DNA of 64,000 bases, taken from IMG/VR virus record IMGVR_UViG_3300045051_000014; one strand, given 5' to 3'. The stretch is from a virus (Duplodnaviria > Heunggongvirae > Uroviricota > Caudoviricetes). The notes beneath the pieces were generated by a model. That model was not told the origin of the DNA and searched no databases. It was given only the letters and a program-made list of their open reading frames with translations. How positions within the stretch are numbered: the first letter of the stretch is position 1; the number at the start of each line of letters is the position of its first letter. Shown one piece after another: positions 3 to 64,000 of this stretch. The translations under genes were made by a program, and so were the position numbers.

Positions 3-404
3 CATGTGGATGCACTAATTGCTGTGCTAGAACGCGGTAAGATCGGTGAGCAATACTGCATCGGCGGTGGCACGCAGAAGACGAACATCGAAATCGCAAC
101 CTCCATCATCGGCTGTATCGGCGGTTAGTTCGAACAGATCGCGTTTGTCGAAGATCGCAAGGGACACGACTTCCGCTACGACATAGATAGTGATAAGCTC
201 TATCTCCACACCGGTTGGAAGCCAATACGTGCATTCCCGCGTGGACTTAGAGAAACTGTAGAATGGTATCGTAATAATATTGAATGGGTGAAATCATGCA
301 GAAGTGCCTCGGAATCATACTCGCAGGCGGCAAAAGCTCGCGCCTCTATCCCGCCACATTTGCTACGACCAAGCAAGTTCTCCCCATCTACGACAAGCCC
401 CTGA
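3..404 (+). pseudogene. rmlB: dTDP-glucose 4,6-dehydratase (RmlB) 3' portion; 5' end lies outside window; reading frame interrupted by in-frame TAG at 126-128
   Basis: Translation ...ERGKIGEQYCIGGGTQKTNIEIATSIIGCIGG*FEQIAFVEDRKGHDFRYDIDSDKLYLHTGWKPIRAFPRGLRETVEWYRNNIEWV matches conserved RmlB C-terminus (NIGG..., DRPGHDRRYAID, IRKTVEWY) on both sides of the stop. Confidence 0.6.
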
Positions 405-1183
405 TCTACTATCCCCTGTCAACTCTCATGTTGGCGGGGATTCGGGATTTTGTTGTAATCACTACGCCGGAAGAACAACAGGTCTTCAAGACGCTCCTAT
501 GGGATGCCGACGAGCGCATGGGCATCAACGTCCACTTTGCCGTACAGGACTATCCTCGCGGCATTGCCGACGCATTCAACGTGGTATCCAAGACCTATCC
601 CCAATTCGTTACCGAGTTCTCCAAGTTCGTATTGATCTTAGGGGATAACATCTTCTACGGCAGTGCTTTGAGCGAACTATTGGAAGACACCGTGGCAAGT
701 ACCCATGCCGCCTGTGTTGTCGCAAAAGTGAAAGATCCCGAAAGATTCGGTGTAATTACAATTGACGAGCGTTCGCAACCCATTGATATCGAAGAGAAAC
801 CAAAGCACCCTAAGTCTAATCTTGCTATAACTGGACTGTACGTTTTCGATTCCACCGTTTTCTACAGGGTCCGCGAACAGAAATTATCCCCTCGCGGAGA
901 ATTAGAGATAACGGATGTATTGAAAGATTACATGGTGAATGGTGATCTAAGAGTGGTTAGTCTTCTAAGAGGAATGATCTGGTTCGACACCGGTACCGCA
1001 GACTCGCTACTGGAAGCCGCTAATCTGGTACAGTCAATACAAAAACATCACGGATATATGGTTGGCAATCCACACGAAATCGCGTATAATAGAGGTTGGA
1101 TCGACCATGAATCACTAAGACTAACTGCGCAATTGTGCGAGAAGTCTGCATATGGTCAATACTTATTGGAGTTACTATCTTGA
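284..1183 (+). CDS. rmlA: glucose-1-phosphate thymidylyltransferase
   Basis: GIILAGGKSSRLYP, VLPIYDKPLIYYPLSTLMLAGIRD motifs typical of RmlA; alternative start ATG 296. Confidence 0.9.
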   Translation: MGEIMQKCLGIILAGGKSSRLYPATFATTKQVLPIYDKPLIYYPLSTLMLAGIRDFVVITTPEEQQVFKTLLWDADERMGINVHFAVQDYPRGIADAFNVVSKTYPQFVTEFSKFVLILGDNIFYGSALSELLEDTVASTHAACVVAKVKDPERFGVITIDERSQPIDIEEKPKHPKSNLAITGLYVFDSTVFYRVREQKLSPRGELEITDVLKDYMVNGDLRVVSLLRGMIWFDTGTADSLLEAANLVQSIQKHHGYMVGNPHEIAYNRGWIDHESLRLTAQLCEKSAYGQYLLELLS

Positions 1184-2484
1184 AACTGACACCTGAACAA
1201 CGGCACTTCTACATTCACGAACTCGCGAAAGAACTGCCGCCATGGGCGTATAACGCAGGCGCAGAGTTTGAACCGGGAAAGACTCCTGTGTATTACTCTG
1301 GTCCGTACATGGATCATCATGAGATTGAGGCAGCACTCAAGACATTCCTCACCGGCAAGTGGTTGGTGACGGGTGAAGAGGTCGCGAAGTTCCAGTGGAA
1401 GTTCGCACGCAAGTTTGGCGTGAAGTGGGCGCACATGGTCAACTCCGGTTCCTCTGCGAATCTGGTCATGATCGCCGCACTCAAGAGTTGGATGGGTTGG
1501 GACGAACATTCAGAAATCATCGTGTCGCCTGTGGGCTTCCCGACCACCATTGCACCTATCGTGCAGAACGGCATGAAGGCAGTGTTCGCAGACATTGAAC
1601 TCGACACGCTCAACTTCGACCTAGAAGATGTAGAGCGTAAGATCCGTAAGAACACGGTCGCTATCTTTGTCTCGCCTGTTCTCGGTAATCCGCCGAACAT
1701 GGATGAACTCAAGCGCATGTGCGACGATGCAGGCATTCTCCTGATCGGTGACAACTGCGACTCCCTCGGTACTAAGTGGAAGGGTAAGTGGCTGACGGAT
1801 TACTATGCCGCGTGGTCAACCTCCTTCTATCCCGCACATCACATGACAACCGGCGAAGGCGGAATGGTATGTTCAAATGACGAAGAAATCATCAAGCTTG
1901 CAAGACAGTTCTCATGGTGGGGAAGGGATTGTGTTTGCGTCGGCGCAGCCAATCTTAAGCCCTGCGGATCCTGTGGAAAGCGTTTCGACAACTGGCTCGC
2001 GCCTGACTATAATGGGATCGTTGACCATAAATACGTCTTCGCTCAGATGGGGTACAACCTCAAGCCGCTCGACTTTCAAGGTGCGATTGGTTCCGTTCAG
2101 CTAGACAAGTTCGATGAGATTCATCTGCACCGGCAGCAGTCCTACGACACCATTCGGGCTATCATCGAAACCTACGTGCCAGAAGTGACGGTAGTGGGTA
2201 ATCTGGATGAAGCCGAAGTCTCATGGTTTGGTGTGCCGATTCTCTGCGACAGTGCGGATGTAAAGACGCGCCTACAGGCTCACTTCGAAGCCAACAAGAT
2301 TCAGACGCGAAACTACTTCGCAGGCAACATTCTGCTTCACCCCGGCTACAAGCATCTAGACGACTTCAAGCGTTACCCTAATGCGAATCAGGCGTTGGAC
2401 CGCGTGTTCTTTGTGGGCGCAGCCCCGCACTACGGTCCTGAAATCTTCAACTGGTTTGAAACGGTACTCTCACAATGGACCTGA
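1135..2484 (+). CDS. PLP/PMP-dependent sugar aminotransferase/3-dehydrase, DegT/RfbH(E1)-like, with C-terminal Cys cluster
   Basis: YYSGPYMDHHEIEA...TGKWLVTGEEVAKF...NSGSSANL pattern of DegT/RfbH family; CxCx9CxxC cluster; start uncertain (overlaps rmlA end). Confidence 0.7.
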   Translation: MREVCIWSILIGVTILKLTPEQRHFYIHELAKELPPWAYNAGAEFEPGKTPVYYSGPYMDHHEIEAALKTFLTGKWLVTGEEVAKFQWKFARKFGVKWAHMVNSGSSANLVMIAALKSWMGWDEHSEIIVSPVGFPTTIAPIVQNGMKAVFADIELDTLNFDLEDVERKIRKNTVAIFVSPVLGNPPNMDELKRMCDDAGILLIGDNCDSLGTKWKGKWLTDYYAAWSTSFYPAHHMTTGEGGMVCSNDEEIIKLARQFSWWGRDCVCVGAANLKPCGSCGKRFDNWLAPDYNGIVDHKYVFAQMGYNLKPLDFQGAIGSVQLDKFDEIHLHRQQSYDTIRAIIETYVPEVTVVGNLDEAEVSWFGVPILCDSADVKTRLQAHFEANKIQTRNYFAGNILLHPGYKHLDDFKRYPNANQALDRVFFVGAAPHYGPEIFNWFETVLSQWT

Positions 2485-3329
2485 CCGTATTCGGGCATAC
2501 AGGATTCGTCGGCAGTCATTTCGTTCAGAGATACTGCCAGACGGACGACCTGTATCTGCCACCTCGCTATTCGCGTAGACCCAATCCATACAAGAAAACG
2601 GATATCCTATATCTAATCTCCACTACGCACAACTACCATGTGTTTGACGATCCGACTCTGGACGTTAAGACTAATCTGGTGGTGCTGACGGAAGCCCTAG
2701 AGTCTTGGAAGAACAACAATCCGGAAGGCGTATTCAACTTTGTGTCATCGTGGTTTGTCTATGGTGAACGGCATGGACTTGAACATAATAGGGCGGTGGC
2801 AGAAACCGCAGTATGTCGTCCAAAAGGTTTTTATTCTATCACAAAACACTGCGCGGAACAATTGGTAAGATCATTCGCAGAAACCCACAATCTGAGCTAC
2901 CGAATCCTACGGCTATGTAACATCCTAGGACCGGGAGACATGGGTGTATCTGCGAAGAAGAACGCGCTCCAATACCTGATCAATGAAATGAAGCACGACC
3001 GCCCAATCTCCATCTACGGGACGGGAGAGTTTACCCGCACCTACATGGACGTTCTGGATTGCGTCGAAGCCCTCCATCTAGTCATGGAAAAGGGTGAAGA
3101 GAACACCATCTACAACATCGGCACGGAACCGGCACAGAAGTTCATCGACCTAATCAAGACTGCCCATCAGTTGCTAGGTAGCAAGTCTGAGATTAACTAC
3201 ATCAAACCTAAGAAGTTCCATCAGCAGGTTCAGGTAGAGAACTTCTCCATGGACTGTTCCAAGCTTAAGAAGCTAGGATTTGAACCAAAATACAGCATCC
3301 TCGGAACGGTAGCCCGACTGTGTAAATAA
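2475..3329 (+). CDS. NAD(P)-dependent sugar-nucleotide epimerase/reductase (SDR fold)
   Basis: N-terminal Rossmann GHTGFVGSH; 284 aa; operonic with rml genes. Confidence 0.6.
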   Translation: MDLTVFGHTGFVGSHFVQRYCQTDDLYLPPRYSRRPNPYKKTDILYLISTTHNYHVFDDPTLDVKTNLVVLTEALESWKNNNPEGVFNFVSSWFVYGERHGLEHNRAVAETAVCRPKGFYSITKHCAEQLVRSFAETHNLSYRILRLCNILGPGDMGVSAKKNALQYLINEMKHDRPISIYGTGEFTRTYMDVLDCVEALHLVMEKGEENTIYNIGTEPAQKFIDLIKTAHQLLGSKSEINYIKPKKFHQQVQVENFSMDCSKLKKLGFEPKYSILGTVARLCK

Positions 3330-3356
3330 GCTAAATAGAGCATCAACCCTCCCACA

Positions 3357-4559
3357 GTGCGGAAGAAGATGCTCAAATTCAGCCAGTTCATCATAGAGAA
3401 TGTCGAAGACACGGCAAAACTCTCCCATCTGGAACACGCCGAAGACCATGTAATCAATGCCGGTTCTGCCGGTGTTCATCATGCCGTCCGGACGCTCGTT
3501 GGCGTTCACCATAAGCTTTTGGGGCATAACACCCCGGTCAAGCTCACCACCAAGTATGACGGCGCTCCATCCCTGATCTTCGGGCATCACCCGGAGTCTA
3601 AGAAGTTCTTTGTCGCTTCCAAGTCGGCATTCAACAAGACTCCTAAGATCAATTACACTCATGATGACGTAGACCGGAATCACGGTCACGCTCCCGGTCT
3701 AGCATCCAAGCTCAAGACCGCACTAGACCATCTTCCCAAGGTTACACCCAAGGGGCGCGTGTTTCAGGGTGACGTAATGTACACCAAGGGTGACGTTCAT
3801 TCGACGCAAACCCACCATTCCTTCAAGCCTAATACCATCAAGTATTCGGTCAAGAAGGATTCTCCGACCGGTCAGAAGGTGGAAAAGGCACACATTGGCG
3901 TGGCTGTTCACACCGAGTACAAGGGCGACGACCTCCATTCGCTCAAAGCTCACTTCGCTCCGGATACTTCCGACTTCAAGGATCATCCGGATGCTCACAT
4001 TATCGGAACCCACACTAAGGCTGATGCTGCGGACTATAAGCCAAAGGATCGTGTCAAGTTCTTCACCCATATCAAAAAGGCAAAGGACGCGGCTTCTGGT
4101 CAGTCTTTTGACCATCTTGATCACCCTGTCCGCGAACATGTCAAGACCTACATCAACCACACTGTTCGCACTGGAACTACTCCATCTGTCGGTGGACTCA
4201 TCAAGCATGTCGAGCAGAAGCACGAAGCTAAGAAGGATATGGTCAAAACTGATAAGTCTAAGCAAGCCATCGAAGCAACGAAACAGTCTCACCTATCGCA
4301 CATTGCGGCTCATAAGGAAGCTTTTGGGAACACTCTCGCGGTTCACAAGCACCTTCAAAACGCCAAGCACGTACTCGTCAAGGCACTCTCCAAGAGCGAC
4401 GAGTTCGACCACCACATCGGGGAAAAGGAATCGGGTCCGGAAGGACACGTTGCCATTGTGGGTTCTAAACCCACAAAATTAGTAGATCGTGGATCGGGTG
4501 GATTCGCCTCTGCCAACCTGAATGCCGGTGGAATCAAAGGCTTAAAGAAAGCTAAATAA
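3357..4559 (+). CDS. Lys/His-rich basic protein; possible covalent nucleotidyltransferase (ligase-like) fold
   Basis: 400-aa ORF; motifs in ligase order: KYDGAP (motif I-like), VFQGDVMY (III-like), EGHVAIVGSK..KLVDR (IV/V-like); otherwise low complexity K/H rich. Confidence 0.55.
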   Translation: MRKKMLKFSQFIIENVEDTAKLSHLEHAEDHVINAGSAGVHHAVRTLVGVHHKLLGHNTPVKLTTKYDGAPSLIFGHHPESKKFFVASKSAFNKTPKINYTHDDVDRNHGHAPGLASKLKTALDHLPKVTPKGRVFQGDVMYTKGDVHSTQTHHSFKPNTIKYSVKKDSPTGQKVEKAHIGVAVHTEYKGDDLHSLKAHFAPDTSDFKDHPDAHIIGTHTKADAADYKPKDRVKFFTHIKKAKDAASGQSFDHLDHPVREHVKTYINHTVRTGTTPSVGGLIKHVEQKHEAKKDMVKTDKSKQAIEATKQSHLSHIAAHKEAFGNTLAVHKHLQNAKHVLVKALSKSDEFDHHIGEKESGPEGHVAIVGSKPTKLVDRGSGGFASANLNAGGIKGLKKAK

Positions 4560-4590
4560 TACAGTTGGAAATTACCCACAGAGCGGTACA

Positions 4591-5865
4591 ATGTCTCACG
4601 CAACTTTCACCTTTGGACGCTTCAATCCGCCGACCGAATCCGGTCACGGCAAGCTAGTCTCTGCTGTTCAGGCTCATGCCGAGAAGACAGGCGGTAAGCA
4701 CTACATCTTCCCATCCCATTCTCAGGATCCAAAGAAGAACCCTCTGAGCCATGGTGACAAGGTGGGAGCCATGAAGAAGCTCTTCCCTTCGGCAAATATT
4801 GTATCCCACCCCGACGTAAAGAACGCAATTCATGCCCTCAAGCATCTTGAATCTAAGGGACATACACACGCAACGATGATCGTTGGTGATGACAGGGTGC
4901 ATGAATTCCACAAGCTACTCCATGCCTACAACGGCAAGGAATACAACTTCAAGAAGATCGAAGTCAAGTCCGCAGGACACCGCGACCCGGATGCAGAAGG
5001 CTCCGAGGGCATGTCCGCATCCAAGCTACGCGGTCTGGTCAAGAGCGGCAAGCGCGACGAGTTCATTTCCCATTACTCCGACAAGAAGCTCGGAGCCGAA
5101 ATTCATGACAAAGTGAAGGCAAACATGAGCGAATCCAAGGCGATGTTCATTCTCGGCGGTCCCGGTTCCGGAAAGGACTACGTGATCAACAATATCCTCA
5201 AGCGTTACGATCTGGTAGAAGTCCAGATGGATCAGATTCTCAACGGCGCAGTCAAGCCTCTGATCGAACAGGGTGTGGATCTTCTGATCAATGGTAATGC
5301 GGATAAGGATAAGATCATCCTTGTCAAGAGCATTCTTGAGAACTATTCGTTCTCACACACCATCGTTTCGGTTACTAATAAGGTGTCGCGTGAGCGCAAC
5401 GCCACTCGCGACCGTCCGTTGTCTGAGCAGACCCGCATTCGTAAGTGGTTGGATTGTGAGAACATTTCGCTGCCCAACTCATTCATCTTCAAGAACTCAC
5501 TCAACTTAGTAGAAGCTTCGAAGACCGAACTCAGCGATTTCCAGAATCAGATCGAAGCCTATCTCGGATTCCTCCAAGAGAACAAGTTCTACACCCTTGC
5601 CGAAGTCCTAGAGTGGGGAACCGATGAAACGGTTCGCACGTTTAAAGAAGCGACTCCCGGTGAGAGTGTCGTAGACACCAAACCAAAGCTTACCGTCAAG
5701 GCACTGCGTAAGCGTGGTGTAAAGGGTATGCCACCAAACGCATATGACTCTCGCGTGGGTGGAGTCCAGTATACTAACTACGCAGGTGGCGGTGCCTATA
5801 CGGGCGGCGCATTCGGCGGATTGGTTTCCAGCTATCAGCACGACAAGAATAAGAAGGTACTGTAA
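4591..5865 (+). CDS. fusion protein: N-terminal cytidylyltransferase-like (HxGH-type) domain + C-terminal P-loop nucleotide kinase-like domain
   Basis: FTFGRFNPPTESGHGKLV (PPAT/NMNAT-like T/HxGH), MSASKLRGL (ISxSxxR motif), later ILGGPGSGKDY Walker A of AK/Pnk type. Confidence 0.6.
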   Translation: MSHATFTFGRFNPPTESGHGKLVSAVQAHAEKTGGKHYIFPSHSQDPKKNPLSHGDKVGAMKKLFPSANIVSHPDVKNAIHALKHLESKGHTHATMIVGDDRVHEFHKLLHAYNGKEYNFKKIEVKSAGHRDPDAEGSEGMSASKLRGLVKSGKRDEFISHYSDKKLGAEIHDKVKANMSESKAMFILGGPGSGKDYVINNILKRYDLVEVQMDQILNGAVKPLIEQGVDLLINGNADKDKIILVKSILENYSFSHTIVSVTNKVSRERNATRDRPLSEQTRIRKWLDCENISLPNSFIFKNSLNLVEASKTELSDFQNQIEAYLGFLQENKFYTLAEVLEWGTDETVRTFKEATPGESVVDTKPKLTVKALRKRGVKGMPPNAYDSRVGGVQYTNYAGGGAYTGGAFGGLVSSYQHDKNKKVL

Positions 5866-5866
5866 C

Positions 5867-6889
5867 ATGTCTCAGAAAGCGTGGATGAACGCATACACCA
5901 AGGGATCGAAGGATATGCAGGCTCGGCTTGCCAAGATCCACAAGAACAATCCTGAGTTTCAGGATTTCGTCAAGAAGCACGGCTTCGGCGGCAACCTTTC
6001 CAAGAAGCAGTCTGAATTGCAGAGCAAGGGTTCTGTTCAGACGGTCAAGCCCGTCACACCCGCTTCGCCTGAGAAGAATCAGAACTTGGATCGTGAAGCT
6101 CTAATCAAGGCAGCAGCCGTTAAGTTGCGCAATCGTCGGCTTGCCAACTCTAATCGTGTGGCATTTGGCGGCGAATTAGGTGGAGACTTCTCCATGCATC
6201 GTGGTGGATGGCGGCGCTATTCCGAGTCCGTAGAAGAATCCGTTGCCGCTAACTTCCGTAAGATCGTTCCCGGTCTTGGAAAACTACAGGCAAAGAACCG
6301 CGCCATTGATCTAGACAATGAGCTAACGAAAGGCATTCAAAACAAGACCCTGACTCGCATACAGCGCATGGCAAAAGCAAAGCACATCGAACGTTTCGCT
6401 CGCGTGGCATCCGGTGAACCTGCATTTAAGAGAAATCCTGCTAACGGCTTCGGTGAGTCGGTAGACGAAGATATTGCCTACAAGGATGGCACGATTGCCA
6501 TGTACCGTGGTGGATGGATCGCAAAGCGTGATGGTAAGAAGATCGGCACCACCATGCCATCTGATAAGCACGCAAGGGAACTTTTAGATGCGACTCACAA
6601 GAGCCTCGCACAGAAGACCATGACGGCACTCAAGAGCAAAGCCAAGTCGGTCATGCAGGGATTTGCCGCACGCAAGTTGGCTACCGAGTCTGCCGCAAAT
6701 CGTCGGCGCATTCGTTCATGGGACTCAGCCGTTCTTCCTGTAGAACACGATCATCCCCTACATACAGAACACCCAAAGAAAAAGCTTGACGCTCTTAGAG
6801 CGGCAGGCAAACACGTAGAAGCACGCGAGCTAGAACGCTCATGGCTAAGAAAAGCAATGGCTAAAGCAAAGACGGAGAACTCAAAATGA
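5867..6889 (+). CDS. hypothetical Lys/Arg-rich basic protein with internal (M/I)xRGGW repeat
   Basis: long ORF, ATG after TAA of upstream gene, internal repeat AFGGELGGDFSMHRGGWRRY / AYKDGTIAMYRGGWIAKRDG. Confidence 0.6.
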   Translation: MSQKAWMNAYTKGSKDMQARLAKIHKNNPEFQDFVKKHGFGGNLSKKQSELQSKGSVQTVKPVTPASPEKNQNLDREALIKAAAVKLRNRRLANSNRVAFGGELGGDFSMHRGGWRRYSESVEESVAANFRKIVPGLGKLQAKNRAIDLDNELTKGIQNKTLTRIQRMAKAKHIERFARVASGEPAFKRNPANGFGESVDEDIAYKDGTIAMYRGGWIAKRDGKKIGTTMPSDKHARELLDATHKSLAQKTMTALKSKAKSVMQGFAARKLATESAANRRRIRSWDSAVLPVEHDHPLHTEHPKKKLDALRAAGKHVEARELERSWLRKAMAKAKTENSK

Positions 6890-7752
6890 GCAAGGCACTG
6901 AATGAACTCAAGAAGGCAACGATGGCATCCTATCTGTCCAAGGCAGGTGGTCGCGTGCGTTCCGGTACGAAGATTGGAATCGACTTTGAGAACGATGCCT
7001 ATCGTGACCTCAAGACGGTCAACCGTCATTCCGAATACAACGTAGACGGAAAGGAAAAGGATCCTGTGATCCGTGCCAAGGCTGAGAAGAGCATGAAGGT
7101 CAACACTGACCTTGCTAAGACGTTCAAGCGTGATGCTGCGAACCGCATCAAGGGTATTGCTCGCGCAGGACGCCTGTTGGCTAAGGAAGATACTGTCAAC
7201 GAAGCAGGCAAGAATCCTTACGGTCCCGGCTACAAGCTAATCGACAAGGACGGCAACGAACTCAAGGTCGGTCACAAGTTCATGCACACTTCGCATCACG
7301 AAGGCTCCAAGCCAGAGCATCACGAAATCACCGGATGGCAGTCGGGTGAGCAGCGTGGCAACTCTTCCTCTTCGGGTCGCGTTGCGGTCAGAGTCGGTAA
7401 GGGTAAGAAGGCTTACGACACCGAATACTTCCCTCATGTTTTCGGCATGAAGGTTGTCAAGGAAGATGTAGAGCCTGTCAACGAACTCAAGACTTCGACT
7501 CTCGCATCCGTCGCAACGAAGCGTTATGCACAGGCGCAGGCTGCACTCAAGGCAAAGGACTTCGGCGGATATGTCAAGGCAAAGGCTAAGTCCATCAAGG
7601 CAGCGGACGCAACCGTGCCTAAGAGTGGTTGGAGTCCAGAAGACGATGCCAAGAAGAATGAAGAAGTTGTGGTAGAATCTCCACAAGAAAAGTATCGCAA
7701 GATCAAGGAAGCCAAAGTCAAGGCAGCTTGCTCTTGCTCCAAGGGGAAGTAA
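6886..7752 (+). CDS. hypothetical Lys-rich basic protein
   Basis: ATGA overlap with upstream ORF; 288 aa, K-rich low complexity. Confidence 0.6.
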   Translation: MSKALNELKKATMASYLSKAGGRVRSGTKIGIDFENDAYRDLKTVNRHSEYNVDGKEKDPVIRAKAEKSMKVNTDLAKTFKRDAANRIKGIARAGRLLAKEDTVNEAGKNPYGPGYKLIDKDGNELKVGHKFMHTSHHEGSKPEHHEITGWQSGEQRGNSSSSGRVAVRVGKGKKAYDTEYFPHVFGMKVVKEDVEPVNELKTSTLASVATKRYAQAQAALKAKDFGGYVKAKAKSIKAADATVPKSGWSPEDDAKKNEEVVVESPQEKYRKIKEAKVKAACSCSKGK

Positions 7753-7753
7753 C

Positions 7754-8899
7754 ATGAGTCAGCTATTCACTAACGTCAGACCGGGCGATACCGTTCACTA
7801 CCTCACCCCACAGGGGCAGCGTGGTAAGGGCAAAGCCGTTCTCTCCTACGATACGCACGTTGTTGTGAATCGTGGTAAGGGACAGCCGCAGGTTGTCAAC
7901 GACAAGAACTATGTCAAGCATGAACGCAACGGCAAGGTCGTCGGCGCATTGCTGTCTCGCCTCAAGGAAGCAACGTGGCAGGGTGCCAACGATCCTTATA
8001 ATTGGGATCCGGTAATGCGTCAGCAGGTTTTCGCTGCCGCCGCGAAGAAGAACCGCGAGAAGCAGAAGGCAAAGGGTCAGCCTGTTCCTCATGAACTGGA
8101 AACTGGTCGTTCATACAAACCTAAGTACAATCCACCTCCTCGCCGTGGCACTGCCAACGAAGACTCGCATGACGCAGAGGGTAAGTCCGCTCGCGTTGCG
8201 AAGACTAAGCGACTCAAGAAGAAGCTGCACGAACTGAACACCAGTACGCTAGCATCTTATGTTTCTAAGGCTATTGCTGATCGTAAGAAGGCACAGGGCG
8301 GATTCGAAATGGCGGGTCGCATTCATACGGGCGAGCGCAAGAAGTATTTCCAAGACAAGATGTTTGCCAAAGTCAGCAAGCGCACGAAAGGCATTCAGAC
8401 GGCTGTGGGCAAGATTGCCAACAATCTGCCGCACGAACCACTCAAGGCACATGCCGATTCCGAGAGCGCAAAGCATGGTGGATGGAGCGGCATGGAAGCG
8501 CGTGAGTCTGAGTGGACCGCTAACATTCAAATGGCGAAGTCTTCGATCAAAACTCCAAGTGGTCACTACCTGATGCGCGATGGTCGCAAACTATCTGGTC
8601 CTCATTCACCAGAAGATGCAGTGAAGCACTACAAGGCTCTCAGTGCGCAGGGTACCGACACGAAGGGTGTGAAGATCGTTCATGTCAAGGAAACTCATTC
8701 GTTCGACGTAACGAACTCCCTGCTTTCCGAAGCCAAGGTGAAGGAAGCCGCAGCAAAGGCAATTTCCCTTTCCAAGAAGGCGAAGGGCAACAAGCATGTG
8801 GATACCGAACCCAAGCTAGATATACATGACAAGGGTGGCGGTGGACCGATGGGCGGTACGCATGAAGGACCGGAGGGTGGCGTCGATGCTAAGATTTAA
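7754..8899 (+). CDS. hypothetical Lys-rich basic protein
   Basis: 381 aa ORF immediately after previous stop; K/H rich. Confidence 0.6.
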   Translation: MSQLFTNVRPGDTVHYLTPQGQRGKGKAVLSYDTHVVVNRGKGQPQVVNDKNYVKHERNGKVVGALLSRLKEATWQGANDPYNWDPVMRQQVFAAAAKKNREKQKAKGQPVPHELETGRSYKPKYNPPPRRGTANEDSHDAEGKSARVAKTKRLKKKLHELNTSTLASYVSKAIADRKKAQGGFEMAGRIHTGERKKYFQDKMFAKVSKRTKGIQTAVGKIANNLPHEPLKAHADSESAKHGGWSGMEARESEWTANIQMAKSSIKTPSGHYLMRDGRKLSGPHSPEDAVKHYKALSAQGTDTKGVKIVHVKETHSFDVTNSLLSEAKVKEAAAKAISLSKKAKGNKHVDTEPKLDIHDKGGGGPMGGTHEGPEGGVDAKI

Positions 8900-9359
8900 G
8901 GAATATTTCACGGAAGAGGAACACATCGTCATTGATGTGGAGCCTACGTATACGCTTTCCAACATGGAAAAGGCGAATGCAGATCTTGATGCCGTGACCG
9001 AAGTTCCATTCGTCAACTCTGCGCTGTTTGTCAACGCAGTGCGTGGTACTCTGGAACGATATGGTGTCATTCTGCCTGCACACTCCAATATGCAGCAGCT
9101 TTCCATGGAAGGCGAGTGGGTCTATCAGCTAGGTGATTCCGGTCACTACGTCTACATGGTTCACAACCTGACACCAGATGGTGCGGTTGAGGGCTATGCT
9201 CAGATCGTGGATCAGGAAGAACTGGACGACCTCTCAGAACTTGGCATTCCAGAAACCATTGAACCAGAACAGCCAGATCGTACTGAACCTTCCGAGTGGA
9301 TGAAGTATCCAAAGGCACGTAGGGACGATGACTCAGGGAATGACGCAGAATACGCCTAA
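8886..9359 (+). CDS. hypothetical acidic protein
   Basis: ATG 8886 overlapping upstream stop; acidic C-terminus (EELDDLSELGIPE...). Confidence 0.5.
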   Translation: MLRFKEYFTEEEHIVIDVEPTYTLSNMEKANADLDAVTEVPFVNSALFVNAVRGTLERYGVILPAHSNMQQLSMEGEWVYQLGDSGHYVYMVHNLTPDGAVEGYAQIVDQEELDDLSELGIPETIEPEQPDRTEPSEWMKYPKARRDDDSGNDAEYA

Positions 9360-9364
9360 TACCT

Positions 9365-9748
9365 ATGGAACAACTTAATAATGATACTGTGTTGCTTTAC
9401 GCAATCAAAGCCTACGATAAGCTCAATTACGTAAAGTCTGAATTTGAAGAGGACTACAAGACATTTCGTTATGTCAAGAGACTTCTTCAACGATACCGGC
9501 AGTCAGGTGAGTTGAGAGAGAACTTAGTTCTCAATCATCTTAACCTGATCTACAATATGTTTGGGATTGAACCGGGAACCCGCTTACTATTCTTTAAGAT
9601 GGATGAGGCTGACTATGCAAGTCTCAAGACCTTTCTGGTCTACCTGAATACGATGCCTGATGTGGTGCATGGTATTGATGGAAGAGACATTCGTTCTTCG
9701 GATTATCCTGTGGATATGAGAATTGCTAATGTCTTAAGATCTCTTTGA
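9365..9748 (+). CDS. hypothetical protein
   Basis: 127 aa ORF, no recognisable motif. Confidence 0.5.
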   Translation: MEQLNNDTVLLYAIKAYDKLNYVKSEFEEDYKTFRYVKRLLQRYRQSGELRENLVLNHLNLIYNMFGIEPGTRLLFFKMDEADYASLKTFLVYLNTMPDVVHGIDGRDIRSSDYPVDMRIANVLRSL

Positions 9749-9813
9749 AATAACCCTTCAAAGAACCACACGGTTATTATACAGGTCGGAATTAGAACTG
9801 TCAAGGTCAAATC

Positions 9814-11808
9814 ATGGAAAAGTACAAATCAGTTTACCCAACTTTGCGACAGGCAAAAACTAAGTGGTCTAAGCCCTCTATTGTCGCCAAGCAGGGTGAA
9901 GGTCCGTCCCATGATTGGTACGAAATGATGAAGAAGGACGCTCGCGCCAAGCTAGCAGCATCCATTCATCAGGCGCATACTGGATCCATTCACAAGCAGG
10001 AACGTATTGTTCATGAGGGTAAGGTTCCTGTGTATGGTTTTTTGACGCAACTACAGAACATCCGCATGAAGGAAACCGGAGTGAAGAAGAGGAAGAACCG
10101 TATGACCAAAGACCCACGACCAACTGATTTCTCTCGTCCTGACCTTAAGGAAGAAGATAGAATCGGCAAGCAGACTCCTTCGGCTGAATCCATTGCGAAG
10201 AAGCACAACAAGGACATTGCCGAGATTCAGGCACAGATCGACAAGGGTATTAAGGTCGAGCGCGAACACACCAACTCAGACGCAGAGGCGCATGAGATTG
10301 CTCGCGACCATCTGGACGAGTTCCCTGACTACTATGATCGACTAGACAAGATGGAAAAGAAGGCAAAGAAAGATATGAAGGAAGGCTACGATCCCGAGAA
10401 GGAACAGATCAAGAATCGTATCGAAGCGCACAAGAGCGTGGCAGAGAAGATGGCAAAGGAACACGGCGAACAGTCAATGGAAGCCGCATTTCACCGTGCA
10501 CTAGTAAGGCGCTATCAGAAAGAGTTGGGTGAAGACAGCACACCGGTCAACGAAGCGACCATGGTGGGTAGTGGTCCTGACGCACAGAGACACGCAGACA
10601 AGTACATCACTCCATACGTGGGACAGAAAGAAACCCACACCTTGAAGAAAGATAATCAGCACATCCCTGCCAAGACCAAGGTTACGGTCCACGGTCACAA
10701 GGTTGTGGACGGTAAGTACCATGCTGTTGTTTCAGGTGGTGGTTCTTCCAAGAAGATCAACGTTCCATTCACACACGTTAACAAGCCGGTCGTCGCCAAG
10801 AACAAGGGTCTGGACTACGAAAGCAAGTTCGTAAAGACTCTGAACAAGCACGGTCTTATGTCTGGTAAGGGCGCAGGCTCAACATCTGGAAATGACTTCC
10901 ACCTAATCGACAAGAAGACGGGTAAGGTCCACCATGGTAAGGTTGCAGAACATGCCTATCAGGGTGAGTCTAAGAAAGATCTGTCTGCCGCATATGGTCA
11001 GGCATCCCTGTCACACCACCCGAAGAAGGGTTGGCACTTTAGCGACAAGGCGAAGGAAAGATTCCCACACTACACTGCTGCTATTGAAAAGGCAACGGTG
11101 ACGGTCGGAAAGACAAAGAAGCCACTGCTTAAGCATGTCAATGAGCAATTCGGTGCGCCACATCCTGTGAAGAAGTCCTCCCATAACGTGTACTCGGATC
11201 CAACCGATTTGCATCCCGCACACGCATACATGAAGGATCACCATGTTGACGTTCTTCATGTTGGAAGTCATGGCACATATCGCGCAGGACTTTCACACCA
11301 CAAGGACCGCACTCCACTAGGTCTTCCTAAGACTGAGGGTGAGGGTCGCTATCGTGTGCGCCAGAAGCATAGAAACTCTCTGACTGTTCAGTTCAACATT
11401 AAGAAGCTAGAGAAGTCTAGTGTTCATTTGGACAATCCAGAACACCTGAACGCCATCAAGAAGAAGCTAGGTCACTCTACTCTCAAGGAAGAGGTTGCCA
11501 ACTCTGTTGGTGGCGGCATGTCGCCAGTCATCGGTGGTGAGAGCAACATTCACGGCTTCGATCCTATCATGGGTAAGTCTTCTCGCCGCAAGACATTTGC
11601 AGGCAAGCAGGTATTCGTGGTTGATCCTACTACCTATCACAAAGCCTATCTCGGCAAGCGCAAGTACGAACACTACGAGAAGTATCTTGAGGGTTCGCCA
11701 TACTTCGAAGAGATTCGTGAGTATGGTCGCAAGAATTGGGATGAACCTATCATCCTACAGAACGAACAAACAGGCGCAATGGTGTACCTAAAATATGGAA
11801 GCAAATAA
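9814..11808 (+). CDS. large hypothetical Lys/His-rich protein
   Basis: 664 aa uninterrupted ORF, same compositional family as 3357-8899 block. Confidence 0.65.
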   Translation: MEKYKSVYPTLRQAKTKWSKPSIVAKQGEGPSHDWYEMMKKDARAKLAASIHQAHTGSIHKQERIVHEGKVPVYGFLTQLQNIRMKETGVKKRKNRMTKDPRPTDFSRPDLKEEDRIGKQTPSAESIAKKHNKDIAEIQAQIDKGIKVEREHTNSDAEAHEIARDHLDEFPDYYDRLDKMEKKAKKDMKEGYDPEKEQIKNRIEAHKSVAEKMAKEHGEQSMEAAFHRALVRRYQKELGEDSTPVNEATMVGSGPDAQRHADKYITPYVGQKETHTLKKDNQHIPAKTKVTVHGHKVVDGKYHAVVSGGGSSKKINVPFTHVNKPVVAKNKGLDYESKFVKTLNKHGLMSGKGAGSTSGNDFHLIDKKTGKVHHGKVAEHAYQGESKKDLSAAYGQASLSHHPKKGWHFSDKAKERFPHYTAAIEKATVTVGKTKKPLLKHVNEQFGAPHPVKKSSHNVYSDPTDLHPAHAYMKDHHVDVLHVGSHGTYRAGLSHHKDRTPLGLPKTEGEGRYRVRQKHRNSLTVQFNIKKLEKSSVHLDNPEHLNAIKKKLGHSTLKEEVANSVGGGMSPVIGGESNIHGFDPIMGKSSRRKTFAGKQVFVVDPTTYHKAYLGKRKYEHYEKYLEGSPYFEEIREYGRKNWDEPIILQNEQTGAMVYLKYGSK

Positions 11809-23541: not shown

Positions 23542-24516
23542 ATGAAGCGATATATTGTGACGGGTGGCGCGGGATTTCTCGGCAGTCATCTGTGTGAACG
23601 TTTGATGGAACTGGATGAAACCTGTAAGGTATTTGCTGTAGATAACCTGTCATCTTCGAACGGTGACAATCTTCACAAGCTGCGCAAGTATGGCTACAAT
23701 CGTTTTGAGTTTGCTGAACTCGACGTATGCAAAGAGAATACGTGGTGGCAGTTGGATCATCATGGTCCCTTTGATGGCATCTTCAATCTGGCTTGCCCCG
23801 CATCCCCACCGTTCTATCAGAACATGCCCATTGAGACTACTCTCACTTGTGTACTAGGAGCGCACTATGCCTTGGAATACGCAACGAAATGGGGATGTAA
23901 AGTTCTCCAAACATCTACTTCGGAAGTTTACGGTGATCCAGAGGTTTCTCCTCAACCGGAATCGTACCGTGGCAAGGTCAATTGCTTTGGACCGCGAGCG
24001 TGCTACGATGAGGGCAAGCGTGCTGCCGAAGCTCTCTTCTTCGACTACCAGAAGCAAAGCGGTACAGATATTAGGGTGGTCCGTATTTTCAATACTTACG
24101 GTCCTCACATGCTTGCTAATGATGGTCGCGTGGTAAGCAACTTCATCATGCAGGGACTCAAGGGCGAAGACCTCACCATCTACGGTGACGGCACGCAGTC
24201 GCGTTCTTTCTGTTATGTCGAAGACCTGATCAACGCAATCATGATTGTCTGGAAGTCTAATTACAAGGCTCCGGTCAATATCGGTAATCCAAAAGAGTTC
24301 ACGATGCTTGAACTTGCGGAGAAGGTAATTAGAATTACAGGTGGTAAATCCAAATTAGTCTTTAAGGATCTGCCTACCGACGATCCTCTTCAACGCTGTC
24401 CCGACATTTCCCTAGCGAAATCATTGGGTTGGGTGGGACCGAGAATTGAACTTGACGAGGGGCTACGAAATACTGTACAATACTTCCTGAGTCGAGCATT
24501 ATCGACTAGGAGATAA
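23542..24516 (+). CDS. UDP-glucuronate decarboxylase-like NAD-dependent epimerase/dehydratase (SDR)
   Basis: IVTGGAGFLGSHLCERL Rossmann motif, catalytic YDEGKRAAE (YxxxK); length 324 aa like UXS/ArnA C-domain. Confidence 0.8.
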   Translation: MKRYIVTGGAGFLGSHLCERLMELDETCKVFAVDNLSSSNGDNLHKLRKYGYNRFEFAELDVCKENTWWQLDHHGPFDGIFNLACPASPPFYQNMPIETTLTCVLGAHYALEYATKWGCKVLQTSTSEVYGDPEVSPQPESYRGKVNCFGPRACYDEGKRAAEALFFDYQKQSGTDIRVVRIFNTYGPHMLANDGRVVSNFIMQGLKGEDLTIYGDGTQSRSFCYVEDLINAIMIVWKSNYKAPVNIGNPKEFTMLELAEKVIRITGGKSKLVFKDLPTDDPLQRCPDISLAKSLGWVGPRIELDEGLRNTVQYFLSRALSTRR

Positions 24517-48512: not shown

Positions 48513-48561
48513 GCCTAAATAAGACACTCACTATTCGTTCCAATTGTAAAGGATCACCAAC

Positions 48562-49677
48562 ATGCTACGCTTCAAAGAACACCTGATTGAGAAAGAGATT
48601 GCGGAATACGCTTTCGTGTTTGAGGATTTTGTTGCCCTAGGCGAACAGTCCCTAGACGAAATGAAGCTGACCGATATCCCTGTCAAGGTAGAGGGTCCAA
48701 AGGTCAATCGTGACAAGACCCCACCTACGGGTGTTCCGAAGCCAGAGCAGAAGGGTGGCAACCACTGGCAGAAGCTCCGCAAGGGTGCTGCGTCTTATTT
48801 CTCTAAGTCTCCCGAAGAACAGAAGAAAGCGCAGGAACACGCCCACAAGGTTCTAGGTCACACAGCCCTCATGGGCGACGAGGCTTCCAACCCGAAGCTC
48901 GCTAAGAGTGGTAAGACGATGCCCGAGTTCCGTACTAAGGGACTCACGCTAGCACCGTCCACCCATTCTGGCATCGACGTATGCCCTAACGCATCGTCCG
49001 AGTGTAAGGCATCGTGCCTAGGCTCCGAAGCCGGTCGCGCACACATGGCAAAGGATGCGCGAGTCAAGCGTACCCACAAGTTGTTTGACCATCCAGAACA
49101 TTTCTATGCCAAGCTTGACTCAGAGATTTCCTCTGCGAAGAGCGCGGCACACAAGGCAGGGCAGAAGCTTGCAGTTCGCCTGAACGTTGCTTCCGACATT
49201 CCTCATGAGCATCTTGCTCGCGGTCTGTTCGACAAGCATAAGGATGTTCACTTCTACGACTACACTAAGATCACCGGAAGAGCGAACCACAAGAACAAGC
49301 CTGACAACTATCACCTGACGCTTTCTTCGACGGGTCTGAACCACAAGGAAAGCAACTGGTCGCATGTGCGCAAGCACCTAGACAATGGTGGTGTGGCAGC
49401 AATGGCATTCCACATCAATGCGAAGAGTCACGCAGGCAAGGCTACGGCACTGCCGACACACGTACACGATGAAGAGACAGGAAAGAAGTATAGAGTTATC
49501 GACGGCGACGAGCATGATCATCGTCACCTTGACAAAGCCTACCATGGTATCCCTGATCATGAGGGAGTCATTGCCGGTCTTAAGTTCAAGGGCGGCGAAG
49601 GCAACATGGAGAAGGCAGGCAACTTTGCAGTGAAGCATGAAGGCGGCATTGCGGTTGCTAAGAAGGGGCAGAACTAA
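48562..49677 (+). CDS. hypothetical His/Lys-rich protein
   Basis: 371 aa ORF. Confidence 0.6.
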   Translation: MLRFKEHLIEKEIAEYAFVFEDFVALGEQSLDEMKLTDIPVKVEGPKVNRDKTPPTGVPKPEQKGGNHWQKLRKGAASYFSKSPEEQKKAQEHAHKVLGHTALMGDEASNPKLAKSGKTMPEFRTKGLTLAPSTHSGIDVCPNASSECKASCLGSEAGRAHMAKDARVKRTHKLFDHPEHFYAKLDSEISSAKSAAHKAGQKLAVRLNVASDIPHEHLARGLFDKHKDVHFYDYTKITGRANHKNKPDNYHLTLSSTGLNHKESNWSHVRKHLDNGGVAAMAFHINAKSHAGKATALPTHVHDEETGKKYRVIDGDEHDHRHLDKAYHGIPDHEGVIAGLKFKGGEGNMEKAGNFAVKHEGGIAVAKKGQN

Positions 49678-63296: not shown

Positions 63297-63804
63297 TCCA
63301 CAAGTCGCAGCACGCTACCACTGCGATAAGCATGTTGTGAAATTAATTCTGGAATCTGCGCAGTTGCTTTCGACTGCGCATCGGGTTCTGGACGGCGACT
63401 CTAAGGGAGTGTTGCCTGATGAAAGAAATGAAGTTCTCTATAGAGCTACCCACCGTAATCACCCGTCTGCTGTATGGGTTAGACGCGAACTTGATCACTA
63501 TCGTTGGGTTCATGATCTACTATATTTTCTTATTGGTGAGTTCCGTTATCGCTACGGCAAGCCACACGCCACAGAGCGTCTACAGCCCTATCTTCTAGAC
63601 GCGCCGCAAAATATTCCTACGGACGGTCCTTTCATCATGGAGGATCCGCCTCAGTGTATGCCGGATGACTGCAAGGGTCCAGACACCGTGGCTGCGTACC
63701 GTACCTATTACGCAAAGCATAAATACCACATTGCCAATTGGAAACGGCGCGGCAGTCCGGAGTGGTGGAATGAAACGGTTCAAGGAATTCATAGCGGAAA
63801 GTAG
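63271..63804 (+). CDS. hypothetical conserved protein
   Basis: 177 aa; FFLDRDPQVAARYHCDKHVVKLILESAQLLSTAH. Confidence 0.55.
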   Translation: MNIFFLDRDPQVAARYHCDKHVVKLILESAQLLSTAHRVLDGDSKGVLPDERNEVLYRATHRNHPSAVWVRRELDHYRWVHDLLYFLIGEFRYRYGKPHATERLQPYLLDAPQNIPTDGPFIMEDPPQCMPDDCKGPDTVAAYRTYYAKHKYHIANWKRRGSPEWWNETVQGIHSGK

Positions 63805-64000
63805 TCTTCATGTCTTCGACATAGACGACACGCTATTCCATACGACCGCAAAGGTCCACGTAAAGAAAGACGGCAAGACCGTCCAGAAGCTCTCTTCGGC
63901 TGAGTATAACAGTCACTCGCTCCCACCGGGACACGAATATGACTATCACGAATTCCACTCAGCCCACAAATTTAACACCGAATCGAAGCCTGTCCACCGC
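63770..64000 (+). CDS. HAD-superfamily phosphatase (partial, 3' end outside window)
   Basis: HVFDIDDTLFHT matches HAD motif I DxDxT. Confidence 0.5.
   Translation, partial: MKRFKEFIAESSLHVFDIDDTLFHTTAKVHVKKDGKTVQKLSSAEYNSHSLPPGHEYDYHEFHSAHKFNTESKPVHR

Follow-up and report, generated by a model that had tools for sequence, protein, structure and literature searches.

Marine T4-like phages, which kill picocyanobacteria and SAR11 on a large scale, carry genes for a DUF6267 protein and its 'cytidyltransferase' neighbour that rank among their most broadly conserved genes without a known function. In cyanophages these form the conserved gene pair T4-GC_71 (a hypothetical protein with DUF6267) and T4-GC_190 (labelled 'cytitidyltransferase' or NMNAT-like, and virion-associated), found across upwards of 450 genomes of T4-like marine phages. 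A second relevant system is that of the T4 internal proteins, which are highly basic and carry the capsid-targeting sequence (CTS) MKTYQEFIAE (PMC8442874), a decapeptide with aromatic residues at positions 4 and 7, an aliphatic one at 8 and Glu at 10; residues 4 and 7 govern targeting, and residues 8 and 10 processing (PMC9026906). The CTS cargo comprises IPI, IPII and IPIII, while Alt, an enzyme delivered with the DNA, has a different propeptide.

The window examined here is a stretch of 64,000 nucleotides from an uncultured T4-like myovirus (IMG/VR record IMGVR_UViG_3300045051_000014). Its positions 3357-11808 hold a block of open reading frames, all confirmed and all on the + strand, that we regard, with a probability of roughly 0.6, as a cluster of genes for head-internal, injected proteins, nucleic-acid or nucleotide-processing enzymes among them. 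An earlier note on this DNA saw no obvious analogue of the block among phage modules, but this view has to be given up: ORF 3357 belongs to Pfam DUF6267, ORF 4591 falls in PHROG 'cytidyltransferase' families, the former occurs in 467 and the latter in 555 phage records of the collection searched, and the pair is syntenic with, and orthologous to, T4-GC_71 (31-36% identity) and T4-GC_190 (37-50%). The block as a whole is syntenic with T4-like phages, sharing with the cyanophages the gene order, a location flanked by the gp41/MazG and gp61/NrdA modules, and a DUF7207 gene. There are also clear differences: the CTS-like leader is on DUF6267 here but on the cytidyltransferase in cyanophages; ORF 4591 has a P-loop kinase where T4-GC_190 has an SH3-like C-domain, the kinase being wholly missing there; and the Lys-rich genes that follow show no sequence relationship to those of cyanophages. 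The pair itself was already known, and what is new is the leader, on DUF6267 and on three other reading frames of the window.

As regards composition, the block had been described as seven consecutive, extremely Lys/His-rich, low-complexity proteins, a description that survives only in part. Six of the eight reading frames in 3357-11808 are strongly basic (net charge +11 to +35, pI 9.3-10.4), but the run is broken by two that are not, at 8886-9359 (pI 4.4) and 9365-9748 (pI 6.1). Lysine is indeed abundant in the basic ones (10.4-15.3%, against 5-8% in ordinary enzymes of the window) and their hydrophobic content is low (0.22-0.30, against 0.32-0.39 elsewhere), but really high histidine is confined to ORF 3357 (10%) and ORF 9814 (6.9%). 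Low complexity does not hold, as entropy in 30-residue segments is on average just a little lower (3.48-3.58 versus 3.6-3.76 bits) and ORFs 3357 and 4591 give confident globular domains in predicted models.

Four reading frames of the window, all on the + strand, begin with a CTS-like decapeptide: the DUF6267 protein (MLKFSQFIIE, 3369-3398), an acidic protein of the block (MLRFKEYFTE, 8886) and, outside the block, a GP88-family Lys/His-rich protein of 371 aa (MLRFKEHLIE, 48562..49677) and an HAD-type (DxDxT) phosphatase-like protein (MKRFKEFIAE, 63770..64000), which is cut by the window end and whose full-length orthologue in locus L011 has 202 aa. All four agree with the T4 determinants at positions 4, 7 and 8 and have Glu at 10, that at 48562 having His at position 7. 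When the six frames of the window were searched with a strict leader pattern, three out of three matches were starts of long + strand reading frames. The leaders of the HAD-like and DUF6267 proteins closely resemble that of T4, the former being identical to it at 7 of 10 residues. The DUF6267 leader is present in 111 of the 120 closest homologues, while the HAD family keeps its leader in 39 loci, with F at position 4 in 38 of them, F/Y at position 7 in 38, L/I/V at position 8 in all 39 and E at position 10 in 36, followed by a spacer of variable length. Judged by its sequence, the leader on DUF6267 agrees with the T4 CTS at the positions that determine its function; in further support, residues 1-23 are disordered in the AF2 model of this protein. 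A leader is absent from ORFs 4591, 5867, 6886, 7754 and 9814, and packaging of these would follow from their position, their composition and the data on homologues.

Cyanophage DUF6267 proteins have no such leader, and the cyanophage cytidyltransferases carry one instead (S-SZBM1_140, MRFRQFIIE; Syn9 gp184, MKKFSAFLSE; S-CREM1_218, MKRYTNFLSE). This orthologue of ORF 4591 appears in four virion proteomes: S-SZBM1_140 was found in virions together with its neighbour _139 (PMC9146016), as were S-CREM2 ORF154-156 (PMC10665884) and the 'NMNAT' of S-SCSM1 and of S-CBWM1 (PMC9602691). Genes directly 3' of the cytidyltransferase yield virion peptides in two cyanophages, and DUF6267, whose copies in S-SZBM1 and S-CREM2 have no leader, is absent from the virion lists of those two phages. 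Authors of the proteome papers (including PMC9602691) warn that proteins without a structural role may, if abundant, come along in virion preparations. Together with the T4-type leader, the proteomic detection of the ORF 4591 orthologue makes internal proteins with enzymatic domains, one of the ideas offered in the earlier note, the most favoured reading.

Compared with the T4 CTS cargo, one of the closest known systems, the proposed cargo shares highly basic mature proteins, a variable and fast-evolving gene content and a T4-like background, and as with Alt it would include enzymes delivered with the DNA. However, the block proteins have no sequence homology to IPI, IPII, IPIII or Alt, and no block ORF gave an internal-protein match (T4 IPI/IPII/IPIII) in Pfam or PHROG; the candidates, at 157-664 aa, are much larger than the T4 internal proteins and include ligase-like, NMNAT-like-kinase fusion, HAD phosphatase-like and GP88-family proteins; and several block members are leaderless. 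The head module lies outside the window, and none of the best 80 T4-like loci listed in a scan with T4 gp21 for the prohead protease is of this clade. We infer that the phage has a gp21-type protease because of its T4-like core synteny and because gp21 is called a core gene in a review (PMC9026906).

The DUF6267 protein itself (396 aa, 3369..4559, +) occupies a frame that opens at GTG 3357. Its true start is probably ATG 3369, as those of two later genes are probably ATG 5867 and ATG 8886, because the N-termini of orthologues agree. It matches positions 2-374 of the 376 in the Pfam profile (PF19782) and scores 319 bits, the cut-off being 27 (E 6.6e-95). The ligase-type motifs previously noted are present and are not due to chance: numbering from GTG 3357, they are KYDG (aa 66-69; putative motif I, 3552-3563), FQGDVMY (136-142; putative motif III, QGD, within 3762-3782) and EGHVAIVGSK (362-371; putative motif IV, EGHV, 4440-4451), to which may be added KLVDR (putative motif V, 4476-4490), and K66, D68, G69, Q137, D139, H185, T186, Y188, E362, G363, V365, K374, V376 and R378 do not vary across 43 homologues. 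These columns are also invariant in the cyanophage homologues, which share 31-36% identity. In the AF2 model strand 62-66 ends with the KxDG lysine, and a KxDG lysine at a strand end is also found in ATP-dependent RNA ligases of Rnl2/Rnl5 type (T4 Rnl2, T. brucei REL1, Naegleria NgrRnl), and QGD (137-139), HTxY (185-188), EGxV (362-365) and KLVDR (374-378) are on predicted strands in the canonical order of motifs III, IIIa, IV and V, to which they were assigned by pattern rather than by residue-level superposition.

On the other hand, identity to these ligases is only 10-13%, no ligase was matched in Pfam, NCBIfam or PHROG or found among PDB sequences (phmmer, hmmsearch), hhalign against T4 Rnl2 was negative (probability 0.1), and Foldseek gave nothing significant. 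The protein also differs from the Rnl2/Rnl5 type in having a 115-residue helical bundle (aa 229-344) between motifs IIIa and IV, no lysine in motif IV, KLVDR as motif V without its second lysine, neither an OB nor any other C-terminal domain, and extra invariant His-rich motifs (HLEHxED, HGH). We describe DUF6267 as a putative, remote member of the ligase/capping-type lysine nucleotidyltransferases with an invariant KxDG lysine. A ligase-type fold would give this family a biochemically testable identity.

Such a protein might be a nick-sealing replicative DNA ligase, standing in for the gp30 that T4-like cyanophages lack. Marine cyanophages are without several replication genes including gp30 (review, PMC2993671), and the counts fit: a tblastn search with T4 gp30 gave 2645 phage records, with Synechococcus phages outside the ten commonest organisms and so in fewer than 63 records, whereas DUF6267 occurs in 367 Synechococcus phage records. 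This is nevertheless quite improbable here, given that the phage has an ATP-dependent DNA ligase of its own at 53958-54848 (PF01068 + PF14743; PHROG 114, E 1.7e-64), that DUF6267 is without the OB domain, and that a capsid-targeting leader would be unexpected on a replication enzyme.

ORF 4591 (424 aa, 4591..5865, +) joins, as had been proposed, an NMNAT/PPAT-like nucleotidyltransferase to a P-loop kinase in one fusion protein. The N-domain (aa 1-180) has a Rossmann-like fold and both signatures of the HxGH family, (H/T)xGH in GRFNPPTESGH (around 4633-4647; TESGH aa 15-19) and ISxTxxR as MSASKLR (5011-5031; aa 141-147), with G18, H19, S142, K145 and R147 invariant. The one-residue insertion in TxxGH is particular to the clade of ORF 4591; the cyanophage homologues, and also P0226, P0231 and P0236, have canonical PPTxGH. 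The C-domain (aa 181-335) combines a Walker A motif, GGPGSGKDY (5155-5181; aa 189-197), with an NMP-kinase/Pnk-like fold, and the disordered tail (aa 355-424) holds a conserved GTDxxRxxxxxxTPGE motif. The protein matches the PHROG 'cytidyltransferase' families (E 1e-50 and 1e-40), one PHROG profile (455) spanning both it and the DUF6267 protein; Pfam CTP_transf_like (PF01467) is carried by a few homologues but gave no match to ORF 4591 at E<0.1.

An HxGH Rossmann nucleotidyltransferase and a P-loop kinase also share one polypeptide in NadR/NadM-type NMN adenylyltransferases and in eukaryotic CoA synthase (PPAT + dephospho-CoA kinase), and ORF 4591 has the GRFxPP...GH and SxxxxR motifs. One might accordingly suppose that it is NadR-like (NMN adenylyltransferase + ribosylnicotinamide kinase) and, whether packaged or not, rebuilds NAD+ as cofactor salvage and counter-defence; it shares a GRF(N/Q)PP signature with the NadM-Nudix protein of the window, and cyanophage papers and some annotations use an NMNAT or NadR-like label. 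However, ORF 4591 differs in having no HTH domain, an adenylate-kinase-like P-loop (GGPGSGKD) and the TxxGH insertion. Its shortfall against CTP_transf_like, the absence of the kinase from the cyanophage orthologues, and the presence in the same phage of separate, bona fide NAMPT (57060-58475) and NadM-Nudix (56002-57063) proteins all count against such a role, which would in addition leave the conserved DUF6267 partner without one; we consider it distinctly unlikely.

It could also be that the pair belongs to a second RNA-repair system that is cytoplasmic and unpackaged, the kinase phosphorylating 5'-OH ends and DUF6267 sealing them much as T4 Pnkp and Rnl1 do, in which case the N-terminal motif would serve oligomerisation, regulation or some other purpose. 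The genome does encode kinase, HAD phosphatase-like and ligase-like proteins that could jointly heal and seal ends, the HAD protein matching PHROG 415 'polynucleotide kinase' (E 1.4e-10). Unlike in T4, though, the predicted activities are on three separate, divergent proteins, two of them with capsid-targeting leaders, and a canonical Rnl1-like ligase (51310-52203) already lies beside an AAA_33 kinase (50589-51317) elsewhere in the window. Moreover, the leader fits the T4 determinants and tracks with virion detection, known healing-and-sealing pathways make no use of an HxGH domain, and the kinase fold cannot tell polynucleotide from small-molecule kinases. On this evidence an unpackaged repair system seems rather unlikely, though it deserves to be kept in mind.

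Downstream follow three Lys-rich proteins, all on the + strand: A (Lys/Arg-rich, 340 aa, net charge +33, 5867..6889), B (288 aa, K 15.3%, with a repeated motif (L/V)xELxxST(L/M)AS(Y/V), 6886..7752) and C (381 aa, net charge +29, 7754..8899), of which B and C have an ELxTSTLASY motif in common. There is some case for regarding these as compositional artefacts or decaying genes of an A-rich stretch, in that AT skew peaks over the block (0.13-0.22), Pfam and PHROG searches with all three were without matches, and the cyanophage proteins encoded at this position are not homologous to them. We think this highly improbable. The frames stay open, and relatives, though they split and fuse them differently, have recognisable homologues with 34-72% identity (A forms one protein with B in L004, of 564 aa, and one with C in L005, of 686 aa, identity being 40-72% over parts), the stops and starts abut or overlap (5865/5867, 6886/6889, 7752/7754), and the virion peptides from genes just 3' of the cytidyltransferase are further evidence against it. 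The Lys-rich genes are conserved but quickly diverging, and relatives split or fuse them in different ways.

The two non-basic members come next. The acidic protein (157 aa, net charge -23, 8886..9359, +) gave no family match in searches that included Pfam and PHROG, and its orthologues in L004 and L005 retain the leader at 57-60% identity. The DUF7207 protein (127 aa, 9365..9748, +; Pfam E 2.8e-32) has homologues in S-MbCM7, S-SZBM1, Syn9 and C48C1, and in cyanophages its gene adjoins one for a 'virion structural/head protein'. The block ends with the composite Lys/His-rich ORF 9814 (664 aa, 9814..11808, +), which has conserved N- and C-parts, the former with DUF5661 (10183-10362, +, Pfam), and an inserted domain of about 300 aa (10531-11433, +). 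Relatives without the insert have 394-434 aa, and homologues overall range from 375 to 1011 aa. The insert occurs elsewhere as a stand-alone K/H-rich protein, in many cases with a CTS-like leader; its family (103 cluster representatives) has no match in Pfam or among PDB sequences, and has a PD-(D/E)xK-like invariant pattern (E, D, ExK).

If the block does encode head-internal, injected proteins, the leader would dock them onto the scaffolding core of the prohead and a gp21-type protease would cut it off after Glu10, the mature basic proteins remaining in the head with the DNA and being ejected into the cell at infection. Leaderless ORF 4591 might ride along as the partner of DUF6267, while the Lys-rich proteins 5867-8899 and ORF 9814 would be the counterpart of the T4 basic internal proteins, with variable payload domains. 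Most speculatively, the cargo (a ligase-like enzyme, a kinase, an HAD phosphatase-like protein and a nuclease-like domain) could heal and seal the ends of nucleic acids, or rebuild nucleotide cofactors, within minutes of infection and ahead of phage gene expression. The T4-type leader turns a loose proteomic observation, that NMNAT-like proteins recur in virions, into a specific model, which predicts N-terminal cleavage and leader-dependent packaging; if true, it would bring enzyme cargo of environmental phages under the T4 internal-protein/Alt paradigm, and a leader combined with Lys/His-rich composition would be a simple sequence rule for injected proteins in metagenomes. A bolder version, which we consider possible but doubtful, is that a large aquatic T4-like clade uses the leader to pre-load its capsid with a complete nucleic-acid end-processing kit (DUF6267 as a ligase family not recognised before, the kinase-adenylyltransferase fusion, the HAD 3'-phosphatase-like protein and the PD-(D/E)xK-like nuclease), injected with the genome so as to mend phage DNA or host tRNA, or to disable defences that target nucleic acids, ahead of any phage gene expression, with the leader moving between partners across lineages and Lys/His-richness marking the cargo class.

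Finally, the DUF6267 gene and ORF 4591 have an upstream element in common, which, like the PHROG profile spanning both proteins, speaks for a functional link between them. The first copy, a candidate late-type promoter and 5' leader (3330..3362, +), consists of GCTAAATA, 14 nt and then CCACAGTGCGG, and ends 6 nt before ATG 3369; the second, GCTAAATA ... CCACAGAGCGG, lies at 4551..4586 (+), upstream of ATG 4591. The late promoter TATAAATA does not occur in the window, a point against the head-protein reading. CCTAAATA is found 47 nt upstream of the GP88-family gene. CTAAATA has 11 occurrences on the + strand and a single one on the - strand, and the same promoter-like arrangement is seen 5' of the orthologues in L004 and L005.

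The block at 3357-11808 comprises eight plus-strand ORFs (named here by start coordinate), whose stop and start codons abut or overlap. It probably represents a head-internal, injected-protein cluster of a T4-like phage, made up of basic proteins and enzyme cargo with a T4-type leader, a reading to which we would assign a probability of roughly 60%. Six of the ORFs (3357/3369-4559, 4591-5865, 5867-6889, 6886-7752, 7754-8899 and 9814-11808) are strongly basic, with 10.4-15.3% Lys (as against 5-8% in the ordinary enzymes of the window), pI values of 9.3-10.4, net charges of +11 to +35 and a low hydrophobic content (0.22-0.30). The earlier note had described consecutive ORFs rich in both Lys and His; this holds for basicity and Lys in six of the eight, but two small ORFs, encoding an acidic 157-aa protein (8886-9359) and a DUF7207 protein (9365-9748), interrupt the run, and only ORF 3357 (10%) and ORF 9814 (6.9%) stand out in their His content. 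Nor did composition analysis bear out the suggestion that these proteins are of low complexity, at least in the usual sense of the term. When the block and 24 kb of the window were compared by megablast with 50,697 phage records, no meaningful match and no close relative emerged; a protein encoded on a 172,287-bp metagenomic contig is 100% identical to that of ORF 9814.

The motifs previously read in ORFs 3357 and 4591 are all present where they had been placed, and structure prediction, to which the earlier note had looked for a possible refutation, gave confident folds for both, which excludes their being disordered low-complexity proteins. For ORF 3357 (likely start ATG 3369; residues are numbered from the GTG at 3357), a match to Pfam DUF6267 (E 6.6e-95) and PHROG 455, the AlphaFold2 model, based on 43 homologues, has a pLDDT of 88.3 and a pTM of 0.84, disorder being limited to residues 1-23 and 396-400. 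The invariant residues of DUF6267, namely K66-x-D68-G69 (at a strand end), Q137-G-D139, H185-T-x-Y188, E362-G-x-V365 and K374-L-V-D-R378, sit, on a mapping by pattern, on the expected elements in canonical order, and the same columns are invariant in cyanophage homologues of 31-36% identity. DUF6267 is, as judged from motifs and model, predicted to be a divergent member of the ligase/capping superfamily of lysine nucleotidyltransferases, to which its relationship is remote: no ligase was found on searching PDB chains with the ORF 3357 sequence and profile, the DUF6267 alignment did not match T4 Rnl2 in hhalign, and Foldseek with the model recovered no ligase relationship. A helical insertion (residues 229-344) accounts for matches to unrelated helical bundles, the protein lacks both an OB domain and a C-terminal domain, motifs IV and V depart from the ligase consensus, and ligases have nothing corresponding to HLEHxED and HGH, two further invariant motifs rich in His. 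For what is a large DUF family, the ligase/capping reading is a new and testable assignment. In one homologue (P0014, 519 aa) DUF6267 is fused to an additional C-terminal domain of about 120 aa, in which a GNAT-like RxxGxG motif can be made out by eye.

The proposed fusion in ORF 4591 of an NMNAT/PPAT-like nucleotidyltransferase to a P-loop kinase is upheld by the AlphaFold2 model, which has two well-predicted domains (pLDDT 80-94) followed by a disordered tail (355-424), by the invariance of the signatures GRFNPP-T-x-x-GH (canonical PPTxGH in remoter homologues) and S-x-S-K-x-R, and by an adenylate-kinase-like Walker A, GGPGSGKD. The fold and motif assignments predicted for both proteins are supported by these results, with the reservation already made as to the remoteness of DUF6267. 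Cyanophage orthologues of ORF 4591 lack the kinase and have a different C-domain, while the tail motif GTDxxRxxxxxxTPG(E/Q) (window 5617-5670) is common to this clade and the cyanophage cytidyltransferases; a strict pattern finds it in 68 of 120 ORF 4591 homologues and in none of the DUF6267 homologues, and it may be a docking peptide. In some contigs (P0201, P0221) the kinase is a separate gene, and extra C-terminal domains vary among ORF 4591 homologues (DUF5824, DUF5661, PF23876, PF19846).

The impression that this pair of enzymes has no obvious analogue among phages proved mistaken. Directly downstream of the block lie genes for a gp61-like primase, NrdA and thymidylate synthase, and upstream of it in a 172.6-kb relative (L004) are gp43 polymerase, UvsX and gp41 helicase. 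The same gene order is seen in T4-like cyanophages (e.g. S-MbCM7, S-SZBM1 and Syn9), where gp41, MazG, a hypothetical gene, T4-GC_71 (the orthologue of ORF 3357), T4-GC_190 ‘cytitidyltransferase’ (that of ORF 4591) and several small genes are followed by a ‘virion structural/head protein’, a DUF7207 homologue, gp61 and NrdA. ORF 4591 matches the ‘cytidyltransferase’ families PHROG 3041/395, and the tblastn counts were 467 phage records for DUF6267 and 555 for the ORF 4591 nucleotidyltransferase, the majority from Synechococcus and Prochlorococcus myophages; pelagiphage HTVC008M and Methylophilales phage Melnitz are among the remainder. Given this synteny and these records, the pair does have an analogue, and is an uncharacterised module that is widespread among aquatic T4-like phages; a literature search found no paper mentioning DUF6267 or ‘cytitidyltransferase’.

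In T4, the capsid-targeting sequence MKTYQEFIAE guides the internal proteins, which are highly basic, into the prohead and is cleaved off afterwards (PMC8442874), residues 4 and 7 serving targeting and residues 8 and 10 processing, with Glu at position 10 (PMC9026906). Plus-strand leaders of this type, almost identical to one another, occur in the window on the DUF6267 protein (MLKFSQFIIE, 3369), the acidic protein (MLRFKEYFTE, 8886), a Lys/His-rich GP88-family protein (MLRFKEHLIE, 48562; gene 48562-49677, K 11.9%, H 8.1%, PHROG 1617, of unknown function) and a Lys/His-rich HAD-type (FDIDDT) phosphatase-like protein (MKRFKEFIAE, 63770, with seven of ten residues as in T4; gene 63770-64000, cut by the window end, PHROG 415 ‘polynucleotide kinase’). 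The positions conserved among them are exactly the T4 determinants 4, 7, 8 and 10, and a strict form of the pattern, sought in all six frames of the 64 kb, gave three matches, all at the starts of long ORFs. The HAD-type protein, full-length at 202 aa in another relative (L011, 3001-3609), keeps the leader in 39 viral contigs, with F at position 4 in 38/39, F/Y at position 7 in 38/39, L/I/V at position 8 in 39/39 and E at position 10 in 36/39, and between the leader and the fold's first strand lies a spacer whose length varies. In the DUF6267 model the leader is disordered. Literature on ‘capsid targeting sequence’ together with ‘cyanophage’ yielded nothing beyond one T4 review, and a scan for a T4 gp21-type prohead protease in this clade gave, among the matches listed, close T4 relatives only.

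Among the closest 120 homologues of DUF6267, 111 have the leader, as against none of 120 ORF 4591 homologues, and the DUF6267 protein of the cultured phage C48C1 bears it too, but in cyanophages this placement is reversed, the leader being absent from DUF6267 and carried by the cytidyltransferase (MRFRQFIIE in S-SZBM1_140, MKKFSAFLSE in Syn9 gp184 and MKRYTNFLSE in S-CREM1_218). Mass spectrometry of purified S-SZBM1 virions detected _140, its downstream neighbour _139 and _136 (PMC9146016); the S-CREM2 cytidylyltransferase ORF154 was detected with the following two gene products, ORF155 and ORF156 (PMC10665884), and ‘NMNAT’ proteins are present in S-SCSM1 and S-CBWM1 virions (PMC9602691). The authors of these proteomes noted the recurrent detection without proposing a targeting mechanism, and warned that co-purification was possible. 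The block is likened to T4 leader-borne cargo through its T4-type leader, and we infer packaging of its proteins from that leader and the proteomics of homologues.

A conserved non-coding element, (G)CTAAATA, 14-18 nt, CCACAG(A/T)G(C/T)GG, 5-8 nt and ATG, stands in front of the genes for DUF6267 and ORF 4591, as it does in front of the orthologous genes (window 3330-3362 and 4551-4586, also 48514-48521; upstream of 10001 and 11224 in L004 and of 3013 in a further relative, L005). CTAAATA occurs 11 times on the plus strand of the window and once on the minus strand, eight of the 11 lying 31-60 nt before an ORF start, and the element may be a promoter of T4-late-like type together with a 5' leader; TATAAATA, the consensus of T4 late promoters, does not occur in the window. 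Because of the leader swap, a PHROG 455 profile that spans both proteins and this common upstream element, the evidence suggests that the DUF6267 and ORF 4591 proteins act, and perhaps travel, together. The GP88 protein has a Cys cluster, CPNASSECKASC, and CCTAAATA lies 47 nt upstream of its gene.

As to what such cargo might do, the T4-type leader would load fast-evolving basic proteins and enzymes into the head for later injection, where, speculatively, they might heal and seal ends at the very start of infection or, alternatively, serve a cofactor-linked counter-defence at that same stage. A role for DUF6267 as substitute replicative DNA ligase was rejected, since the window encodes a canonical small ATP-dependent DNA ligase (53958-54848) and DUF6267 is therefore not needed for this purpose here; at a coarse level, though, the phages with gp30-type ligases and those with DUF6267 form complementary sets. 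Likewise, ORF 4591 is not the phage's sole route to NAD, as a NadM-Nudix NMNAT (56002-57063) and NAMPT (57060-58475), an NAD+ salvage pair, are also encoded. With the ligase and an Rnl1-like RNA ligase (51310-52203) adjoining an AAA_33 kinase (50589-51317), they form a canonical counter-defence/repair set (50589-52203, 53958-54848, 56002-58475).

Relatives retain ORFs 5867, 6886 and 7754, which diverge fast (34-72% identity over parts, versus 64-79% for the enzymes); 5867 and 6886 form a single 564-aa ORF in L004, 5867 and 7754 a single 686-aa ORF in L005, and 6886 and 7754 have in common a repeated short motif, ELxxST(L/M)AS(Y/V). Pfam, PHROG and NCBIfam searches with these three and 8886 gave no match, and comparison of the Lys-rich ORFs with their positional counterparts in five cyanophage-type loci revealed no homology. 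The ends of ORF 9814 are conserved and include DUF5661, a domain that certain homologues of ORF 4591 likewise carry as a fusion, while an insert of about 300 aa (aa 240-540, window 10531-11433) is absent from its closest relatives. This insert, for which Pfam and PDB sequences gave no match, is one of a family with 103 cluster representatives. Most of these are Lys/His-rich proteins of about 300 aa that stand alone, and many start with the leader; the family's invariant E97, D122 and E146-x-K148, the sole basis for the comparison, suggest a resemblance to PD-(D/E)xK nucleases. Apart from the acidic 8886 protein, the families that carry the leader are Lys/His-rich and poor in hydrophobic residues.

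Nucleotide-sugar biosynthesis genes (DegT-type aminotransferase, epimerases) lie at 284-3329, immediately preceding the block, and at 23542-24516, with others in L004 at 4981-9525, including a nucleotidyltransferase and a dTDP-sugar isomerase. A DUF2828/DUF7788 protein at 32743-34167 matches PHROG 850 ‘RNA-binding protein’ (E 2.9e-147). Outside the block, a further Lys-rich basic protein (24763-25818; K 12.8%, pI 9.9; PHROG 11903, of unknown function) weakly resembles the N-terminal part of ORF 9814 (E about 0.02-0.05).
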